Part shown: in pieces, positions 22,594-62,793 of the stretch
Layout: each line of letters opens with the position of its first letter
How positions within the stretch are numbered: the stretch's first letter is position 1
NCBI GenBank assembly: GCA_022824865.1
Contig: JAJDZD010000072.1
Span: forward strand, 70,848-134,847
Direction of reading: 5' to 3'
Source: Chloroflexota bacterium
GTDB taxonomy: Bacteria > Chloroflexota > UBA11872
DNA length: 64,000 nucleotides
Position numbers and translations under genes: made by a program
The notes under the pieces: generated by a model
The model's database searches: none
Told to the model about the DNA's origin: nothing
What the model saw: the letters and a program-made list of their open reading frames with translations, nothing else

Positions 22594-23628
22594 ATGCCCC
22601 CCGACTACGACTGGCAAGCCCTCCACCGCGACGCCCTCGTCATCGACTCCCACAACGACACCATCGTTGGCCTCATCCGTCGTGATGGGCAGAGCATGGC
22701 CGGGCCCGACGCCCCGTCCCGTGACACCCCCGAGAGCCTGATCGGCTACCTGCGCGGACCCGTCGACACCGCTGAAATCCCCATCCAGTCCGACCTCCCC
22801 GCCATGCGCGAAGGCGGCCTGGACTGCGGCTACTTTGCCGTTGACAACACCCGCGCCTGGGGCAACCACCTGGCCTACGTGCTGGATGGATTTGGTTGGT
22901 TTCACGCCGAAATCCAGGCCCATGCGGACCAGATCGCCCTGGCCTTCACCGCCGACGACATCCTGGCCGCCAAGGCCGCCGGCAAAGTCGCCGTCGTCCT
23001 CGCCATTGAGAACTCCGAAGCCCTCGAACGCAGCCTCTACGTCCTGCCCATGCTCTACCAGGTCGGCGTCCGCACCATGACCATCACCCACTCCATCCGC
23101 ACCTACGCCGGCGACGGCGAGCGCGCCCACCGTTCAGGCGGCGGCCTCACCGAATTCGGCCACGACCTCATCGCCTCAATGAACGACCTCGGCATGCTCG
23201 TCGACGTCTCCCACCTCAGCGTCCCCGCCTTCTGGCACGCCATGCGGGCTACCAACGCCCCCGTCATCGCCAGCCACAGCTCCTGCCGCGCCCTCAACGA
23301 ACACGGCCGCAACCTCCACGACGACCAGATGAAAGCCATTGCCGACGGCGGCGGCGTCATCGGTGTCAGTTGCGTCCACCACTTCGTCCACTGGACCAAC
23401 CCCACCCTCGAGCTCTACCTCGACCACGTCGAACACGCCGTCAACGTCGTCGGCATCGACCACGTCGGCTTCGGCTCCGACTTTGACGGCGGCTCATACC
23501 TCCTCGACGACGCCCGCCAGGTCCCCCAGATCACCCGGGGCCTCGCCGCCCGCGGCTGGACCGAACCCCACCTCCGCAAATTCCTCGGCCTCAACCACCT
23601 CCGTGTCTTCCGCGACGTCTGCGGCTGA
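22594..23628 (+). CDS. Membrane dipeptidase (peptidase family M19, renal dipeptidase-like)
   Basis: VIDSHNDT metal-binding start, VDVSHLS, HSSCRAL and GFGSDFDGG motifs typical of M19 dipeptidases. Confidence 0.85.
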   Translation: MPPDYDWQALHRDALVIDSHNDTIVGLIRRDGQSMAGPDAPSRDTPESLIGYLRGPVDTAEIPIQSDLPAMREGGLDCGYFAVDNTRAWGNHLAYVLDGFGWFHAEIQAHADQIALAFTADDILAAKAAGKVAVVLAIENSEALERSLYVLPMLYQVGVRTMTITHSIRTYAGDGERAHRSGGGLTEFGHDLIASMNDLGMLVDVSHLSVPAFWHAMRATNAPVIASHSSCRALNEHGRNLHDDQMKAIADGGGVIGVSCVHHFVHWTNPTLELYLDHVEHAVNVVGIDHVGFGSDFDGGSYLLDDARQVPQITRGLAARGWTEPHLRKFLGLNHLRVFRDVCG

Positions 23629-23783
23629 ACCGACTGCATGTGACGTTGCCGGCGCCGAGCGCTAAGGTTTCGGCTCGGCTGGTTGAGGCGCACATCCGCG
23701 GGCGGTCGGATAAGCGCAGTCACACGTACTCTGGCCGAGCGTCCCTTCTGACTGGGTAGAAGTCTCCCCGGAGGTTCGAGACC

Positions 23784-24572
23784 ATGCGTGTAATCCGTGC
23801 GCTCGTTATCGCGGCTCTGACCGCGATTCTGCTTTCAACACCTGCGCTGGCCCAATGGCCAACCACCTGCGTGTCCCTCAACGACATCGTTGAGAATCAC
23901 CTCGGGAACTACAACAACGTCGGCATCTACCAGCGCGTATTCGGTGATCAGGCCGAACAGGCGTGTCAAAACGACCATCGTGACGATGTTCGCGGTGTGT
24001 TTGCCTGGGCATTCCCCGAAGGCGTTGGACTCGTTGTCCCGGTGCCCGCGCCCGGCGCCACGTCGCCATCCATAACGCCTGCCGAGCTTGAAGCCAAGAT
24101 CGACGGGTTCTTGCACGCCAGCGCGGCGCATACCAACACCGGGAATGAGAGTGTCCAAGAGGCAAATGCGGAGATAATCAGCGCCACCGCGGCTATTCGA
24201 GCCGGCAATGTTGATACTGCGTCAACAGCGGTTTTGCGTGCCGGCGCACACTGGGCTGACGCTGATGACAGCCTCAGAAAGGCGGCTACCGAGATATCCG
24301 CGGCAGCCGCAACGGCGGCGACGGACGATTACGTGGAGACTTCCCGCCTCCTCTACTCGGTCTCGACTTCCCTCTTCGTCGCGGCCGGATTTGCGCGTCA
24401 GATCAGCGATATCAACCTGGAGGTTGCCGAGTTGCTTGCCGCCAGGGACTTCAATCGGGTTGGTCCGCTCCTGGCTGAGAGTCAGAGAATCTCCACGTCG
24501 CTGGCTGAACTCATGGCTGCCGGTGCCGATGAGCTTAGGGCTGCCGGCGTCGCGCTCTCTGAAGGCCGCTAG
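23784..24572 (+). CDS. Secreted hypothetical protein (Sec signal, 4-Cys N-domain, Ala-rich helical C-domain), paralog A
   Basis: Signal peptide MRVIRALVIAALTAILLSTPALA. About 90% identical paralog at 25263-26051. Confidence 0.6.
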   Translation: MRVIRALVIAALTAILLSTPALAQWPTTCVSLNDIVENHLGNYNNVGIYQRVFGDQAEQACQNDHRDDVRGVFAWAFPEGVGLVVPVPAPGATSPSITPAELEAKIDGFLHASAAHTNTGNESVQEANAEIISATAAIRAGNVDTASTAVLRAGAHWADADDSLRKAATEISAAAATAATDDYVETSRLLYSVSTSLFVAAGFARQISDINLEVAELLAARDFNRVGPLLAESQRISTSLAELMAAGADELRAAGVALSEGR

Positions 24573-24687
24573 TCTGTGACCTGCGCCAGGGGCATCCGCC
24601 CCTTGGCGCAGGTCCAACGACTTCAGCACCGCCAGCCTGCTCGCGAGCAGCGCTTGGCGCGCGGCTATCACTTCCGCGCGCCTGCCC

Positions 24688-24800
24688 TCAGTCCCGACTC
24701 ACCCGAATCGCAGCCCTCACGCCCAGCTCCGCCCACGCCCGCTCCGACGTCACCGCCGGCAACCCCTGCATTGCCGCCAGCGTCAAACACGCCCGGTCGC
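24688..24800 (-). pseudogene. Remnant of a VapC PIN-toxin C-terminus (truncated paralog of 26168-26554)
   Basis: Encodes ...GDRACLTLAAMQGLPAVTSERAWAELGVRAAIRVSRD, matching the C-terminal 37 aa of the two intact VapC paralogs. No N-terminal PIN half is present. Confidence 0.5.
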
Positions 24801-24837
24801 CAGGCGCGAGACCTCTGCGCCGATCGAACGCACCCCC

Positions 24838-25107
24838 ATGTCCTCCCCCATGCTCTACCGGGTCGGCGTCCGCACCACGACCATCACCCACGCAGTCCGC
24901 ACCAACGCCGGCGAATTCATCGCCCTCAACTGCGTCAACCACGTCGGCTTCGGCTCCGACTTTGACGGCGGCTCATACCTTCTCGACGACGCCCGCCAGG
25001 TCCCCAAGATCACCCGGGGCCTCGCCGCCCGCGGCTGGCCCGAACCCAACCTCCGCAAATTCCTCGGCCTCAACCACCTCCGCGTCTTCCGCGAAGTCTG
25101 CGGCTAG
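24838..25107 (+). pseudogene. Internally deleted fragment of the M19 dipeptidase gene
   Basis: Encodes MLYRVGVRTTTITHAVRT...HVGFGSDFDGGSYLLDDARQVPKITRGLAARGWPEPNLRKFLGLNHLRVFREVCG, a copy of dipeptidase segments 23050-23100 and 23450-23628 with the middle missing. Confidence 0.6.
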
Positions 25108-25262
25108 CCCGACTACAAGTGACCTAGCCAGCTTCAGACGCTAAGGTTTCGGCTCGGCTGGTTGAGGCGCACATCCGCGGGCGGTCGGATCAGCGCAGTC
25201 ACACGTGCTCTGGCCGAGCGTCCCCGCTGACTGGGCAGAAGTGTCCCGGGAGGTCCGTAACC

Positions 25263-26051
25263 ATGCGTGTAATCCGCGCCCTTTTCATCGCGGCTCTGAC
25301 CGCGATCTTGCTTTCGTCACCTGCGCTGGCCCAATGGCCAACCACCTGCGTGTCACTCAACGACATCGTTGAGAATCACCTCGGGAACCACAACAACGTC
25401 GGCATCTACCAGCGTGTGTTCGGCGATCAGGCCGAACAGGCGTGTCAGAACGACCACCGTGACGATGTTCGCGGTGTCTTTGCCTGGGCATTTCCCGAAG
25501 GCGGTGGACTCGTCGTGCCGGTGCCCGCGACCAGCGCCACGTCGCCATCCATAACGCCTGCCGAGCTTGAAGCAAAGATCGCCGGCTTCTTGCAGGCCGG
25601 CACCGCGCACTTGAATGACGCCAGCGCGAGCATCGGCATGGCCACCCAGGAGATCAACGCCGCCACGGCGGCTACCCAGGCCGGCGACATCAATGCGGCC
25701 ACAAGTGCCATCCGGCGCTCAAGCGCACACTGGGCTGACGTCGACAACAGTCTGAGAGCCTCGGCCATCGAGACGACGAAGGCCGCAGCCGCGGCGGCGG
25801 CGGACAACTTCCCGGAAACGTCCCGACTCCTCTACTCAACCTCAACCACCGTTTTCATCGCGGCCGGAAAAGCACGCCAAATCAGCGACAACAGCTTGGT
25901 AATAGCCGATGAGTTTGCGGACATCAACTCTGAACGGGTCGCTCCGCTCCTGGCCGAGAACCAGAGCCTGTCAATGTCGCTGGCTGACCTCATGGCGGCC
26001 GGCGCCGATGAGAGTCTTCAAGTCGCAGCCGCTCTGGCGGCTGGCCGCTAG
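25263..26051 (+). CDS. Secreted hypothetical protein, paralog B
   Basis: Same signal peptide and domain layout as 23784-24572. The upstream 150 bp is also duplicated. Confidence 0.6.
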   Translation: MRVIRALFIAALTAILLSSPALAQWPTTCVSLNDIVENHLGNHNNVGIYQRVFGDQAEQACQNDHRDDVRGVFAWAFPEGGGLVVPVPATSATSPSITPAELEAKIAGFLQAGTAHLNDASASIGMATQEINAATAATQAGDINAATSAIRRSSAHWADVDNSLRASAIETTKAAAAAAADNFPETSRLLYSTSTTVFIAAGKARQISDNSLVIADEFADINSERVAPLLAENQSLSMSLADLMAAGADESLQVAAALAAGR

Positions 26052-26167
26052 TTCCGGGTCGGCGCCAGGGGACATGCTTCCTTGGCGCCGGCCGGCGGCT
26101 CGTGGATCCGGCGCATCCGTTTGCCCCGGGAGTCGGTTGCACGCCTGGTCCCACCGCGCACCGCCCC

Positions 26168-26554
26168 TCAGTCCCGAATCACCCGCACCTCAACCCCAAC
26201 CTCCAACCCTGCCCACGCCCGATCCGCCGTCACCGCCGGCAGCCCCCGCACTGCCGCCAACTGCAAACACGCCCGATCACCCAGCGAAAGACCTCGGTGC
26301 CTGGTCGGATTCCGTAGCCGACCCGACGCAATTGCCTGGTTCTCGTCAAAGGCAACGACTTCGAGTTCAAGCATCGCCAGGGCGTAGTGCCACTCCGCCG
26401 CGTTCAAGCCCTCATCGGAAAGCCTGGAAACGACCTCTGCGACATTGACCGACGAAGCCACGGCGTCGCCTCGGTATCCCGCCACCACGTCGGCCCCGCG
26501 TTCGCCACGGAAAAGAGCCAACATCGCCGAGGCGTCCAGGACGGCTCGGCTCAC
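26168..26554 (-). CDS. vapC: PIN-domain toxin VapC
   Basis: MSRAVLDASAMLALFRGE (PIN beta1 D) ...LSLGDRACLQLAAVRGLPAVTADRAW. Stop overlaps the upstream antitoxin by 4 nt. Confidence 0.75.
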   Translation of the reverse strand: MSRAVLDASAMLALFRGERGADVVAGYRGDAVASSVNVAEVVSRLSDEGLNAAEWHYALAMLELEVVAFDENQAIASGRLRNPTRHRGLSLGDRACLQLAAVRGLPAVTADRAWAGLEVGVEVRVIRD

Positions 26555-27126
26555 GTGGGCTCCGTCGTCACAGCCTTGGCCCGCCTCGCCTTGATCTCGG
26601 CAATTTCGGCCTCCTCGGCCGCAGCTTCCCGACGTCGCTCGGCAATCAGTTCATCCACCAGGCTCACACCCTCCGGCACGTAGCTGGCAATCATCTGCTG
26701 AACGCGCTTGAACTCCTTCTCGTCATTCACCACCCGCAACTCGTCCCCATCCATCTGCATCACGATGTAATCGCCCTCTTCGACCTCCAGCGCCTTTCGA
26801 TACGCCGCCGGAATCACCACCCGCCCTCCCGGCCCAATCGCCGTTCGCACCAGCACCGGCAGCGAGTCCCCGGCCTCGCCGTCCGCAGCCGGCATCGTCC
26901 GGCTTAACTGGGTCTCCATAAACCCGCTCTGCACCAGCACATTCCGCACATGCTGATAGCGGATACCCAGGAACCCCGCGATCTCCGACCGGCTATATCC
27001 CGCCCGGAACAGCGCCCGAATCTTGTCGGCCTTCGTCGTCAGCCCCGCCACCACCTCATCCGCCGGCTCCCGACAGCACGCACACACACAGCACTCGTCA
27101 TCACAGCAGCAGTCACAACACGCCAT
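26551..27126 (-). CDS. Antitoxin with Cys-rich N-terminal tag, HTH domain and SpoVT/AbrB swapped-hairpin domain
   Basis: Start ATG 27126 has a strong AAGGAGAG RBS. N-terminus is MACCDCCCDDECCVCACC. HTH segment KIRALFRAGYSRSEIAGFLGIRYQHVRNVL. AbrB/MazE-like GRVVIPAAYRKALEVEEGDYIVMQMDGDELRV. Acidic C-terminal tail. Confidence 0.65.
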   Translation of the reverse strand: MACCDCCCDDECCVCACCREPADEVVAGLTTKADKIRALFRAGYSRSEIAGFLGIRYQHVRNVLVQSGFMETQLSRTMPAADGEAGDSLPVLVRTAIGPGGRVVIPAAYRKALEVEEGDYIVMQMDGDELRVVNDEKEFKRVQQMIASYVPEGVSLVDELIAERRREAAAEEAEIAEIKARRAKAVTTEPT

Positions 27127-27231
27127 TAGGTCTCTCCTTCGACCGCCGTGCAATCCACGCGCAGTATGTCCGAATATGGCAAACAAACCAGTCTTTGCCA
27201 AGTGATAGGTTTATATTTTTCGGCTACTGCC

Positions 27232-27618
27232 TCAGTCCCGAATCAACCTCACTTCCACTCCCAGCTCCAACTCCGCCCACGCCCGATCCGCCGTCACCGC
27301 CGGCAACCCCCGCTGCGCCGCCAGCTGCAAGCAAGCTCGGTCAGCGAGCGAGAGACCGAGGTGACGGGTCGCGAGGCGAATTTCGGTGGTGGCTAGTGCC
27401 AGCTCTCTGTCAAGAGGCACGATGTCCAGCGACATACGAACGATGTACTGCCTTACTTCGGTCCTGGACAGACCAAGATCAACTAGCCGGGCCCCGACCT
27501 CGGCGACATTGACCGCCGAGGCCAGAGAACTGCCCAAATATCCGACAACAACCTCCCCGCCGGGCTCGCCTCGCAAAAAAGCCAGCATCGCCGAGGCGTC
27601 CAATACGGCCCGGCTCAC
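27232..27618 (-). CDS. vapC: PIN-domain toxin VapC, paralog
   Basis: About 70% identical to 26168-26554 (MSRAVLDASAMLAFLRGE...). 4-nt overlap with its antitoxin. Confidence 0.75.
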   Translation of the reverse strand: MSRAVLDASAMLAFLRGEPGGEVVVGYLGSSLASAVNVAEVGARLVDLGLSRTEVRQYIVRMSLDIVPLDRELALATTEIRLATRHLGLSLADRACLQLAAQRGLPAVTADRAWAELELGVEVRLIRD

Positions 27619-28232
27619 AAAGCGTCTTCGGCCGCGGCTTCGCGTCGGCGATCGCGAATCAATTCGTCGACCAGGCTCACCCCCTCGGGCACATATCGAG
27701 CGAGCCTCTCCCGAATCCGAAGGGTCTCGGTATCGAAGTTCACCAACCGCAACTCCTCACCCTCGATTCGCATGCTCACGGCGTCGCCCACCTCCAGGCC
27801 TAGCGCCTCACGAAACGCTAACGGGATGACCACCCGTCCGCCGGGGCCTACGACGCCTCGGACCGGATCCATCAGCGGATCCGCGTCCGGAAAGATGCCG
27901 ACCCCTCTGCGCTCTTCGCTGGCAATGCCCTGCCGATCTTTGGGCTGGGCCCGAGCGATCTGACAGATCGTTTCGAGCTTCCGAAGATCCGGCTCACGAG
28001 CAACTCGCCACTGATAGCGGGTGTATTTCTGTCGGTCGGATTCGACATAGGTTCGCAGTAGGCGGCGCAAAGCGTTCGTTCGGCCCCTGTGGCTCTGGTC
28101 CGGCCAAAGCGCTGCGGCTAACTCCTTCGGCGTTATGACTCCATCCGATCTGGCGATTGCGCGGAAGTCGATGCCAGTGTCAGCCGCTGTGGTCGGCGGC
28201 CGGCGGTAGGTGTATCCATGAGTCGCCACCAT
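27615..28232 (-). CDS. AbrB/SpoVT-domain antitoxin, paralog without the Cys-rich tag
   Basis: Start ATG 28232 with a GAAGGAG RBS. GRVVIPLAFREALGLEVGDAVSMRIEGEELRLV swapped-hairpin domain. C-terminal YVPEGVSLVDELIRDRRREAAAE is shared with 26551-27126. Confidence 0.65.
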   Translation of the reverse strand: MVATHGYTYRRPPTTAADTGIDFRAIARSDGVITPKELAAALWPDQSHRGRTNALRRLLRTYVESDRQKYTRYQWRVAREPDLRKLETICQIARAQPKDRQGIASEERRGVGIFPDADPLMDPVRGVVGPGGRVVIPLAFREALGLEVGDAVSMRIEGEELRLVNFDTETLRIRERLARYVPEGVSLVDELIRDRRREAAAEDAL

Positions 28233-28420
28233 GTAGCTCCTTCCCCTGGCGAAGAGCATCTTGAACCTTTCCGAATAATCTTAGAAAAGATTCCAGTTTT
28301 TGGCAAGATCATGACAACTCGTGAATCTTTCGGGCCGACGTTGAGTTCCAGCGGCCAATCCTCCCTTCATTTCCTCGGCGACTACACTGTCCTCCCTACC
28401 CCCATGCCGAGGCCCCACCC

Positions 28421-29359: not shown

Positions 29360-29656
29360 CTACGAACCGGCCGCTTGCCGTTCAGCTTGCTCCACGTGCG
29401 AACGCAGCGCCCGGTTGATGTCCGTCTGATACCCGCGACCGTCCGGAGCCTGCTGCTTGAACCACGCCACCACGTCCGCGTCCAGCCGCAGCGTGATCTG
29501 CTGTTTCACCGGCCGGTAGAACAGCCCGCGCTTGGCGCCGGACCAGTCCAGCGTCTCGGGGATGTCCGACGTGTCGATCTGGTCGTCCGGCAACGCCTCA
29601 AGCGCGTCAAGCTCCGCTCGCTGGGCCGCTGTCAGATCAGAAGTGTCCTTCTGCAT
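29360..29656 (-). CDS. brnA: BrnA antitoxin
   Basis: Start ATG 29656 (MQKDTSDL...). YRPVKQQITLRLDADVVAWFK is the BrnA CopG-like signature. Overlaps brnT. Confidence 0.7.
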   Translation of the reverse strand: MQKDTSDLTAAQRAELDALEALPDDQIDTSDIPETLDWSGAKRGLFYRPVKQQITLRLDADVVAWFKQQAPDGRGYQTDINRALRSHVEQAERQAAGS

Positions 29657-29939
29657 AAGCCATCCTTTCGTGAGCCGTGGCCTTCCGTGCGCTGATGATC
29701 CGGCCCACATCGTCACCGGTCGGCCAGTCGTCCTCGGGCCATGTGTGAACGATCAGCACAATCGCCGCACCCACGGTCCCAATCGTTCGCAAGCGATGTT
29801 CACCTTCATACGGGTCACTCCGCGTCATGGCCATGGGATCATCGAAGACACGCGCCGCAGTCTGGAAACTCAGCCCGTGCTTCAGTCGATTGGCTCGATC
29901 CTTCTCCCGATCCCATGTCCAGCGAAGTCGCCCGACCAT
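29637..29939 (-). CDS. brnT: BrnT toxin (DUF497 ribonuclease)
   Basis: WTWDREKDRANRLKHGLSFQTAARVFDDPMAMTRSDP...RIISARKATAHER matches the BrnT family closely. Confidence 0.8.
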   Translation of the reverse strand: MVGRLRWTWDREKDRANRLKHGLSFQTAARVFDDPMAMTRSDPYEGEHRLRTIGTVGAAIVLIVHTWPEDDWPTGDDVGRIISARKATAHERMAYAEGHF

Positions 29940-55738: not shown

Positions 55739-55842
55739 TGCGGCGTGGGCGCTCTGGCGTTCGCTCAGGGCAGTCGTCAGGTCGCGGGCCCCCGACGCGT
55801 CGAACCGCCGGGGCGCGGACGTGCACGCGTAGCACGCCCACG

Positions 55843-55986
55843 GCGCCTTCTCCCTTCCGGACTGTACCGTCGGCTCCGGATTCGCACCGGATCAGCCGGC
55901 GAACGCCGGCTCGCGGGCTTGGCCTCGGGCCTCACCGCCGGTCGGGAATTTCCAGGCGCGAGCGCCGGGATCACCCTGCCCCGAAG
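55843..55986 (-). ncRNA. FMN riboswitch (RFN element) leader of the rib operon
   Basis: Minus-strand sequence reads GGGGCAGGGTGA..GGAAATTCCCGACCGGCGGTGAGG...GGTGCGAATCCGGAGCCGACGGTACAGTCCGGAAGGGAGAAGG. It contains the conserved RFN cores GGGCAGGGTGAAATTCCCGACCGGCGGT and GATTC.GAGCCGACGGTA.AGTCCGGA.GGGAGAAGG. Located about 105 nt upstream of the ribD start. Confidence 0.75.
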
Positions 55987-56090
55987 GCACGTATGTGCGT
56001 GGGTCAAGCATACGCCCGTGCATCGCGGCGTCCAATCGCCGCCGTATGCTCCGACAACGAACATACGACTGTCGGCCGGAGCGAGGCGTG

Positions 56091-62554: not shown

Positions 62555-62698
62555 GCCAGGCCGAGCGTCCTGAGACGCTTTGGCTGGTGATCCCGCTCTT
62601 GTCCAGAGTCCTTTGCACGTCAAGGAACAGGGGCTGGAGCGTGTCTTACGCCGCATGGCAGCGCTTCCCGCCCCTCGCCCGTTGAGGGACTCCCCGGG

Positions 62699-62793
62699 CG
62701 GAGGTGCATGGGAGTCGAACCCACCTGGAACGCTCACCAGCGCCCCACAACGGTTTTGAAGACCGCGAGGACCACCCGGCCCCGTCCACCTCC
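62699..62793 (-). tRNA. selC: Candidate selenocysteine tRNA (tRNA-Sec, anticodon UCA), 95 nt
   Basis: Minus-strand sequence is GGAGGTGGACGGGGCCGGGTGGTCCTCGCGGTCTTCAAAACCGTTGTGGGGCGCTGGTGAGCGTTCCAGGTGGGTTCGACTCCCATGCACCTCCG. Acceptor is 8 nt (one G.G mismatch at pair 8). 6-bp D-stem with 4-nt loop. Anticodon loop CTTCAAA is identical to E. coli selC. Long variable arm. T-loop TTCGACT is identical to E. coli selC. Discriminator is G. Confidence 0.55.

Follow-up and report, generated by a model that had tools for sequence, protein, structure and literature searches.

Organization of the Locus

The window, that is, the whole stretch of 64,000 nucleotides of Chloroflexota DNA that was analyzed, carries two paralogous toxin-antitoxin modules on its minus strand. 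The antitoxin of one of them (vapB) begins with a cysteine-rich tail, referred to here as the tag. The features discussed below are the following:

27615..28232, minus strand: untagged paralogous antitoxin, starting MVATHGYTYRRPP after AAGGAG-CTAC
27232..27618, minus strand: paralogous vapC (PIN), 63% identical to the toxin of the tagged module
27173..27201, minus strand: putative sigma-70-like promoter of the tagged vapBC operon, a consensus match only
27132..27139, minus strand: Shine-Dalgarno sequence AAGGAGAG, followed by a 5-nt spacer (ACCTA) and the ATG
27126-27124, minus strand: ATG of the tagged vapB
27064..27126, minus strand: Cys-rich N-terminal tail, M1-P21 (MACCDCCCDDECCVCACCREP), modeled by AF2 without secondary structure (pLDDT 50-56)
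26899..27063, minus strand: helix-turn-helix (HTH) domain, residues 22-76 (GLTTKADKIRALFRAGYSRSEIAGFLGIRYQHVRNVL), predicted by AF2 and Foldseek
26725..26850, minus strand: AbrB/MazE/SpoVT swapped-hairpin domain, residues 93-134, predicted by Pfam, TIGR01439 and Foldseek
26554..26724, minus strand: C-terminal helical region, residues 135-191, with the invariant YVPEGVSLVDEL..RRRE, defined by conservation and by AF2 helices 135-149 and 156-188
26168..26554, minus strand: vapC, a 128-residue PIN-domain toxin (Pfam PIN, E 5.2e-13)

The ORF of the tagged vapB runs over 26554-27126 of the minus strand (191 residues), with the stop codon at 26551-26553. vapC starts at a GTG within a 4-nt overlap (GTGA) with this stop, and a GGAG of its own lies 5 nt before the GTG. 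This overlap and the Pfam match support a PIN toxin partner for the antitoxin described in an earlier reading of the same DNA (the initial annotation). The toxin sequence has acidic residues at the expected motifs (D7, E40, D93, D111), and a PDB search gave it a single, weak match (3dbo, E 0.24). At all 52 places analyzed in the related loci and the window, the antitoxin homologue is followed by a toxin ORF, in most cases about 128 residues long. Judged by its sequence, the module is of the VapBC/AbrB kind, and the Cys-rich tail is a new feature on this known kind. With canonical AbrB-type VapB antitoxins it shares the swapped-hairpin domain, the presumed toxin-binding region at the C-terminus, the overlapping PIN gene and a promoter that is probably autoregulated. 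The subfamily differs from them in adding an N-terminal HTH (one or two copies), and the Cys-rich tail occurs in this clade only.

The paralogous module (27232-28232) lies directly upstream. As the initial annotation had stated, its antitoxin lacks the tag: the protein contains no Cys, and H-x-Y-x-Y takes the place of the C-x-C-x-C of the tagged protein. The 105-nt gap between the stop of the upstream vapC (27232) and the tagged ATG holds the predicted promoter, composed of TTGGCA, a 17-nt spacer and CATATT, with TG preceding the -10 element. No inverted repeats of at least 8 nt were reported in the promoter of the tagged vapBC; a 7-nt pair, TGGCAAA/TTTGCCA, was spotted there by eye.

Genes for an aldo/keto reductase and an M19 dipeptidase flank the tagged module in the window as well as in three related MAGs, which indicates vertical inheritance at a stable site. 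The site carries variable toxin-antitoxin and defence cargo. The PADLOC defence models gave no match.

Translation Start of the Tagged Antitoxin

Where does translation begin? The initial annotation had set the start at the tag because of a strong ribosome-binding site, and this placement stands: the Shine-Dalgarno sequence of the window is followed after 5 nt by the ATG, and a GGAG-type sequence precedes the tag start by 5-9 nt in 15 of 15 tagged loci (as GGA or GGGG in two). The upstream sequences of these 15 loci are not conserved, with three or more unrelated types among them. A longer ORF from a TTG (27201) was rejected, as it has no ribosome-binding site and its added residues are not conserved in relatives.

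It could be argued that the tract is non-functional, either because translation starts downstream (at the GTG of V25/V26, or at M22 in relatives) or because a low-complexity expansion is tolerated. Gene callers indeed disagree, some public gene models start within or after the tag (P0051, MCERRP; P0049, MDEV; P0021, VVDGL), and a GGGAG is found 12 nt before the GTG of V25. However, L004, the locus of P0051, contains a full in-frame tag plus its own GGAG, so that the tag is under-annotated and not absent. The Shine-Dalgarno sequence and start codon upstream of the tag are conserved, the codon for V14 is usually GTC or GTT, i.e., no start codon, neither frameshifts nor stops occur among 41 tag variants, and the Cys residues are kept through synonymous changes. 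A tract without function is thus considered very improbable.

Sequencing error, which the initial annotation had named as a possible refutation, does not account for the tag either. Assemblies from NCBI, ENA and Logan contain the identical protein, and independent MAGs yield 41 different versions of the tag, so the tag is not a sequencing artefact.

Domain Organization

By its predicted domains, the gene product is a VapB-type antitoxin, composed of an HTH, an AbrB domain and a presumed toxin-binding C-terminus, to which an N-terminal tail of about 20 residues is added. The HTH and the AbrB domain that the initial annotation placed in frame with the tag are supported by both profile and structure comparisons. 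Pfam PF04014 matches residues 101-132 (E 1.9e-6) with 28.1 bits, above its cut-off of 24.7, and TIGR01439 scores 27.3 bits, just below its cut-off of 28.3. The AF2 model of the one-HTH protein, obtained from a 78-sequence alignment, comprises a confident four-helix HTH at residues 28-75 (helices 32-41, 46-53, 57-66 and 71-75; pLDDT 85-90); behind it come a linker of low confidence (79-101), a hairpin resembling that of AbrB and a long helix at the C-terminus. Foldseek relates the modeled HTH to LuxR/GerE-type DNA-binding domains (LiaR, DosR) and the AbrB part to 1yfb (AbrB-N, probability 0.96), while homologues match Pfam HTH_23 and HTH_7. By analogy with VapB antitoxins, residues 135-191 are presumed to form the toxin-binding segment. 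The tail is predicted to be disordered, as apo thiolate peptides are; in the Foldseek search against the PDB only the AbrB and HTH parts found matches, and the tag found none.

Homologues with two HTH domains (242-259 residues) contain three Cys-bearing segments, of which the N-terminal tag is the first. An invariant C80-x-C82-x-C84-E-R-x-P (ERRP) lies directly before the second HTH, and an invariant C143-V-C145-P precedes the AbrB domain. These two segments place thiols at every domain boundary of the two-HTH proteins, and their Cys codons, like those of the tag, vary synonymously. In the AF2 model of a two-HTH homologue the HTH domains are confident, and each of the three Cys segments appears as a linker of low confidence between them. 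No metal-site geometry can be inferred from either the one-HTH or the two-HTH model.

Conservation of the Cysteine-Rich Tail

The first 18 residues of the antitoxin (MACCDCCCDDECCVCACC) are encoded by 27126-27073. The peptide, ORF and coordinates given in the initial annotation are correct, its lower bound of 27070 adding R19, but the Cys count of the tag has to be revised from 12 to 10, all within the 17 residues after Met. All Cys codons of the antitoxin are located inside the tag.

The core of the tag reads C3-C4-x-C6-x-C8-x4-C13-x-C15-x-C17-x-R19-x-P21. Among 41 distinct 21-residue tags, Cys is found in 41 at positions 4, 8 and 15, in 40 at position 17, in 39 at positions 6 and 13, and in 35 at position 3. 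R19 and P21 are invariant in the same set and V14 is conserved. Cys is optional at positions 7, 12, 16 and 18; Asp or Glu predominates at positions 5 and 9-11. A CopY-type CxCx4CxC motif (C6-x-C8-x4-C13-x-C15) is shared by the window protein and 42 of 48 distinct tags.

Could such a tract arise by chance? Cys accounts for 1.1% of the residues encoded by the confident genes of the window, and no comparable Cys tract was found in the other real ORFs of about 520 kb (the window plus about 460 kb of related loci), so the tag is far beyond chance expectation. A Pfam search with three tag sequences (E <= 10) returned no match and no metallothionein family, and a PDB sequence search with the tag alone gave no relevant match. 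To see whether other proteins bear the tag, metagenome contigs were scanned for the seven-Cys core with a degenerate DNA pattern; the scan hit 120 loci, almost all of them (TGY)n repeats, and was uninformative.

Codon Usage in the Tag

The nucleotide sequence offers a second view of the constraint acting on the tail. In 14 tagged loci, 91 of the 98 core codons encode Cys, and both TGT and TGC are seen in each of the seven core columns. With synonymous variation of this sort, it is the peptide that selection preserves, not a DNA repeat; the codon comparison shows a translated tail whose amino acids are subject to purifying selection.

The initial annotation had instead described the coding DNA as a GT-rich simple repeat, prone to slippage and thereby to phase or length variation. 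The only runs in the tract are (TG)5 and (CTG)3, and Tandem Repeats Finder detected no repeat in 26900-27300 even at a score of 30. Most relatives have GTC or GTT codons that break up the (TG)5 run, the longest present. Tag length, whose comparison across strains had been recommended, is identical in 56 of 62 tagged proteins; the remaining six vary, all in frame. Rare length variants of this kind, such as P0030 (two residues more), P0015 (two fewer) and P0054 (nine fewer), are what a slippage-prone repeat has in its favor. The palmitoylation-like lipid anchor that had also been suggested sits poorly with a DNA-binding, and by inference cytoplasmic, antitoxin that has no signal, lipobox, membrane or secretion features. 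Neither slippage nor anchoring is regarded as credible beyond a very slim chance.

Codon choice within the tag is uneven. TGT makes up 53% of the Cys codons in tags against a background of 14% in neighboring genes (Fisher P 6e-12, for loci that are not phylogenetically independent). This excess hints at an additional constraint at the nucleotide or translation level, which lies outside a metal-binding model.

Distribution and Relatives Lacking the Tag

A search of 5.8 billion proteins recovered 1583 relatives, of which the closest, about 60, are tagged and come without exception from Chloroflexota MAGs. A profile built from tagged proteins recovered 3223 family members (clusters) among 1.84 billion representatives at 50% identity. 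Among the best 150 of these 3223, two aligned to tag positions 1-21, P0030 with one HTH and P0059 with two, and no CxCxC cluster was found among the other 147 of the best 150 profile matches. Relatives that lack the tag belong to Chloroflexota, Alpha- and Gammaproteobacteria and other phyla. On these sequence searches, the HTH-AbrB antitoxins are a very large family, in which the tag is a rare addition restricted by lineage. No Cys-tagged AbrB-type antitoxin was found in the open-access literature, in agreement with the initial annotation, which knew of none.

What do the nearest tag-less relatives have at the same place? At the site of C13-x-C15-x-C17 they carry H-x-Y-x-Y (MATHTYDYDRQP) or H-x-H-x-H (MHTHEHAQQP). 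Cys, Tyr and His can each serve as a metal ligand. Because TGY, TAY and CAY are single-nucleotide neighbors, the C, Y and H variants may derive from one another by mutation. An ATCUN-type N-terminus (X-X-His after removal of Met) was considered and rejected as a general account, since it fits relatives starting MATH but not those starting MVATH, MTHG or MHTH.

A Candidate Metal- or Thiol-Responsive Tail

We give about an even chance to the reading that the tail is a metallothionein-like thiolate peptide whose binding of Cu(I), Zn(II) or Cd(II), or whose oxidation, alters antitoxin stability or DNA binding. The metal or redox responsiveness put forward in the initial annotation is thereby retained as the best-supported reading, with indirect support from the conserved spacing, the synonymous Cys codons, the CopY motif and the predicted disorder. 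Fixed spacing, acidic spacers, 7-10 thiols in 18 residues and predicted disorder are what would be expected of a small thiolate metal-binding peptide.

Metallothioneins and metallothionein-like clusters (fungal Cu-MTs, mycobacterial MymT, the copper fist of yeast Ace1) are Cys-dense, built of Cys-x-Cys units and unstructured without metal. The tagged VapB, with its 7-10 Cys, repeated Cys-x-Cys and predicted lack of structure, resembles them in motif and composition. In contrast to them, it matches no Pfam family, its Cys cluster is a tail on a larger regulator and not free-standing, and metal binding is putative.

Another parallel is CopY of Enterococcus hirae, where a four-Cys motif of identical spacing likewise forms a short disordered appendage at one terminus of a DNA-binding repressor. 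The 14-residue CxCx4CxC motif of CopY by itself binds Cu(I) and Zn(II), dimerizes and is disordered in the metal-free state, and binding to it switches DNA binding (PMC12648655). The motif is C-terminal in CopY, whereas in the tagged VapB it is N-terminal and flanked by at least three extra conserved Cys. The two proteins have no sequence homology: CopY contains a BlaI/MecI-type winged helix and the tagged VapB a LuxR-like HTH plus AbrB. Their operons differ as well, that of CopY encoding copper ATPases and that of the tagged VapB a PIN toxin, with no copper genes near.

Among type II antitoxins, MqsA of E. coli has a Cys-ligated zinc site at its N-terminus. Its degradation by ClpXP depends on zinc occupancy and oxidation, which sets a precedent for the proposed mechanism (PMC8808172). 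In MqsA, however, the zinc is held by a folded four-Cys domain with a second role in binding the toxin (MqsR), and the protein carries an XRE HTH, whereas the tail of the tagged VapB is a predicted coil. MqsA did not appear among the PDB sequence search matches of the tagged VapB. In M. tuberculosis, VapBC has been tied to copper stress (PMC12893294).

How would a tail of this kind act? The seven fixed Cys, together with up to three optional ones, would chelate Cu(I), Zn(II) or Cd(II), and possibly As(III) or Hg(II), whereas in the metal-free tail they would oxidize to disulfides. As AbrB domains dimerize, two tails would lie beside two HTH domains. The metal or redox state of the tails may then affect HTH geometry or oligomerization, and hence operator binding, and may also make the tail more or less accessible to proteases. 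By either path, liberation of the PIN toxin would come to depend on metal or thiol stress. We infer both the metal binding and its regulatory consequence. Some observations point the other way: there are no adjacent metal genes (none for metal homeostasis at the window locus or the related MAG loci), no curated family match and no modeled geometry, and the TGT excess finds no explanation. Closely related modules also do without the tag, an example being P0065 (locus L047), a tag-less module that is 77% identical and starts ARAVYSY.

Alternatively, the metal site could be constitutive and structural, a permanent Zn(II) knuckle or bridge that dimerizes or positions the HTH domains without any sensing, the alternating H/Y strand of the tag-less relatives doing the same job without thiols. 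The fixed spacing and the invariant triads at each HTH boundary would suit such a site, as would the alternating C/H/Y pattern at the same position in relatives and the dimerization driven by the CopY motif. Yet AF2 gives the tail no ordered structure, 7-10 thiols exceed the need of a single structural Zn site, and the number of optional Cys is variable (5 to 10). We consider a purely structural role unlikely. Structural and sensory readings fit the same data and are inseparable computationally.

Cysteine Codons and Translation

A different possibility is that the codons matter as such. With 7-10 Cys codons, including CC doublets, at its very beginning, synthesis of VapB could be sensitive to charged tRNA-Cys. 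Starvation for Cys, or cleavage of tRNA-Cys by a VapC (perhaps the one encoded here), would stall ribosomes and lower the antitoxin level, while vapC, having its own Shine-Dalgarno sequence, would still be translatable. Two mycobacterial systems lend some substance to this scenario. Leaderless polycysteine short ORFs act as Cys-responsive attenuators that sense Cys by ribosome pausing, two consecutive Cys codons being sufficient (10.1101/834739), and the PIN toxin VapC4 of M. tuberculosis cuts tRNA-Cys and brings ribosomes to a halt at Cys codons (PMC13096801). The confinement of every antitoxin Cys codon to the tag, the strong over-use of the wobble-read TGT in tags and the GGAG of vapC also fit.

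The tagged tract and the mycobacterial attenuators have in common dense, consecutive Cys codons at the 5' end of the first ORF of an operon. An attenuator is a separate short ORF, however, whereas the tract opens the reading frame of a 191-residue protein and has fixed spacing; it also differs in lacking a conserved structure that sequesters the ribosome-binding site and downstream genes of cysteine metabolism, none of which were found near the tagged module at the window locus or at the related MAG loci. Against a translation sensor stands, moreover, the conservation of exact Cys positions and spacing and not of Cys number alone, and the invariant internal triads of the two-HTH proteins would be needless for a sensor at the 5' end. 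Nor does the RNA speak for it: conservation does not extend to the 5' UTRs of the tagged loci, and local folding is unexceptional (z = -1.34). The toxins offer no support either: on clustering, those of tagged and untagged modules intermix, and the toxins beside tagged antitoxins form no separate clade. On balance, sensing through translation appears decidedly unlikely.

A conserved RNA switch or attenuator was rejected, given this fold score, the unpaired Shine-Dalgarno sequence and the three unrelated UTR types before the same tag.

In an extended form of the scenario, the TGT-rich tract would be a tRNA-Cys sensor, responding to starvation or to its own VapC, that turns the module into a bistable toxin switch, with a Cu- or thiol-responsive protein also possible. 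This combination is rated as quite improbable. If true, it would amount to a self-amplifying switch and a two-level cysteine/metal checkpoint, undescribed for any toxin-antitoxin system.

Implications

How type II antitoxins sense stress is poorly understood, and the zinc site of MqsA is among the few direct chemical links. Should the tail prove to be a metallothionein-like appendage of VapB, it would constitute a second, chemically different link between signal and antitoxin, and at about 20 residues a simple, portable module through which copper, zinc, cadmium or thiol oxidation could act on a toxin-antitoxin switch. The tail is missed or clipped in some public gene models, and short sensory tails on regulators may therefore be under-reported. 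The names of several of the MAGs (COS, RHO) resemble those of sponge-microbiome sets (PMC8163846) and, judged by these names only, the tag carriers appear to be sponge-associated Chloroflexota. In these bacteria, toxin-antitoxin systems are abundant.

N-terminal tags and their counterparts

Tag-less close relatives of the Cys-tagged antitoxin, among them the paralogue of the window (N-terminus at 28232) and the homologous proteins P0071-P0116, open with alternating His/Tyr motifs (MATHTYDYDRQP, MHTHEHAQQP, MVATHGYTYRRPP) that fall at the exact position of CxCxC. More distant family members lack such N-terminal motifs. The homologues P0007 and P0017 are Cys-tagged antitoxins of 191 and 174 residues, respectively, and the longest contig on record has the same length for both (385,625 bp), which suggests the presence of two tagged modules in some genomes.

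In public gene models, the annotated start of some orthologues lies within or downstream of the tag (MCERRP..., MDEV... and VVDGL...; P0051, P0049 and P0021), so that the deposited proteins are devoid of the Cys tail. For P0051, the DNA of the corresponding locus (L004, JAPPKM010000194.1) shows an in-frame coding sequence for the tail that has an RBS of its own.

TGT accounts for 53% (51/96) of the Cys codons of tagged antitoxin genes (tags of window 27064-27126 and of the related loci L002-L026), compared with 14% (27/194) for the neighboring genes at these loci and 13/93 for the window. The same shift is seen in the internal CxCxC triads of the two-HTH proteins, tagged homologues with a second HTH. 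Why is TGT in excess? Avoidance of TGC repeats or hairpins is one possibility; slow wobble decoding is another.

Promoters

The predicted promoters of both vapBC pairs contain a common 15-nt element, identical at 13 of 15 positions, which covers the -35 hexamer:

27188-27202, CCAGTCTTTGCCAAG
28293-28307, CCAGTTTTTGGCAAG

In the tagged operon, this element belongs to an inverted pair of 7 nt (TGGCAAA...TTTGCCA). The element is a candidate common operator.

Genomic neighborhood

A further toxin-antitoxin module lies about 2 kb away from the vapBC pairs:

29363-29939, minus strand, BrnT/BrnA pair, a type II toxin-antitoxin module (Pfam E-values of 1.9e-22 and 7.4e-15)

In related MAGs, ParE and McrBC genes are also located in this region, so that toxin-antitoxin and defence genes form a small island here, at a syntenic position in the chromosome.

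The window also contains a segmental duplication (23453-24821 vs 24932-26301) with 67-92% identity and a period of 1479-1480 bp. The duplicated segment includes the start of a vapC gene, thereby leaving a truncated vapC remnant. The resulting features are:

23784-24572 and 25263-26051, two copies of a 262-aa putative secreted protein
24688-24942, minus strand, truncated vapC remnant with no antitoxin
24838-25107, fragment copied from the 3' end of the M19 dipeptidase gene

Two RNA features are found elsewhere in the window:

55841-55992, minus strand, FMN riboswitch (96 bits)
62697-62793, minus strand, selenocysteine tRNA gene (71 bits with Rfam; anticodon TCA according to ARAGORN)
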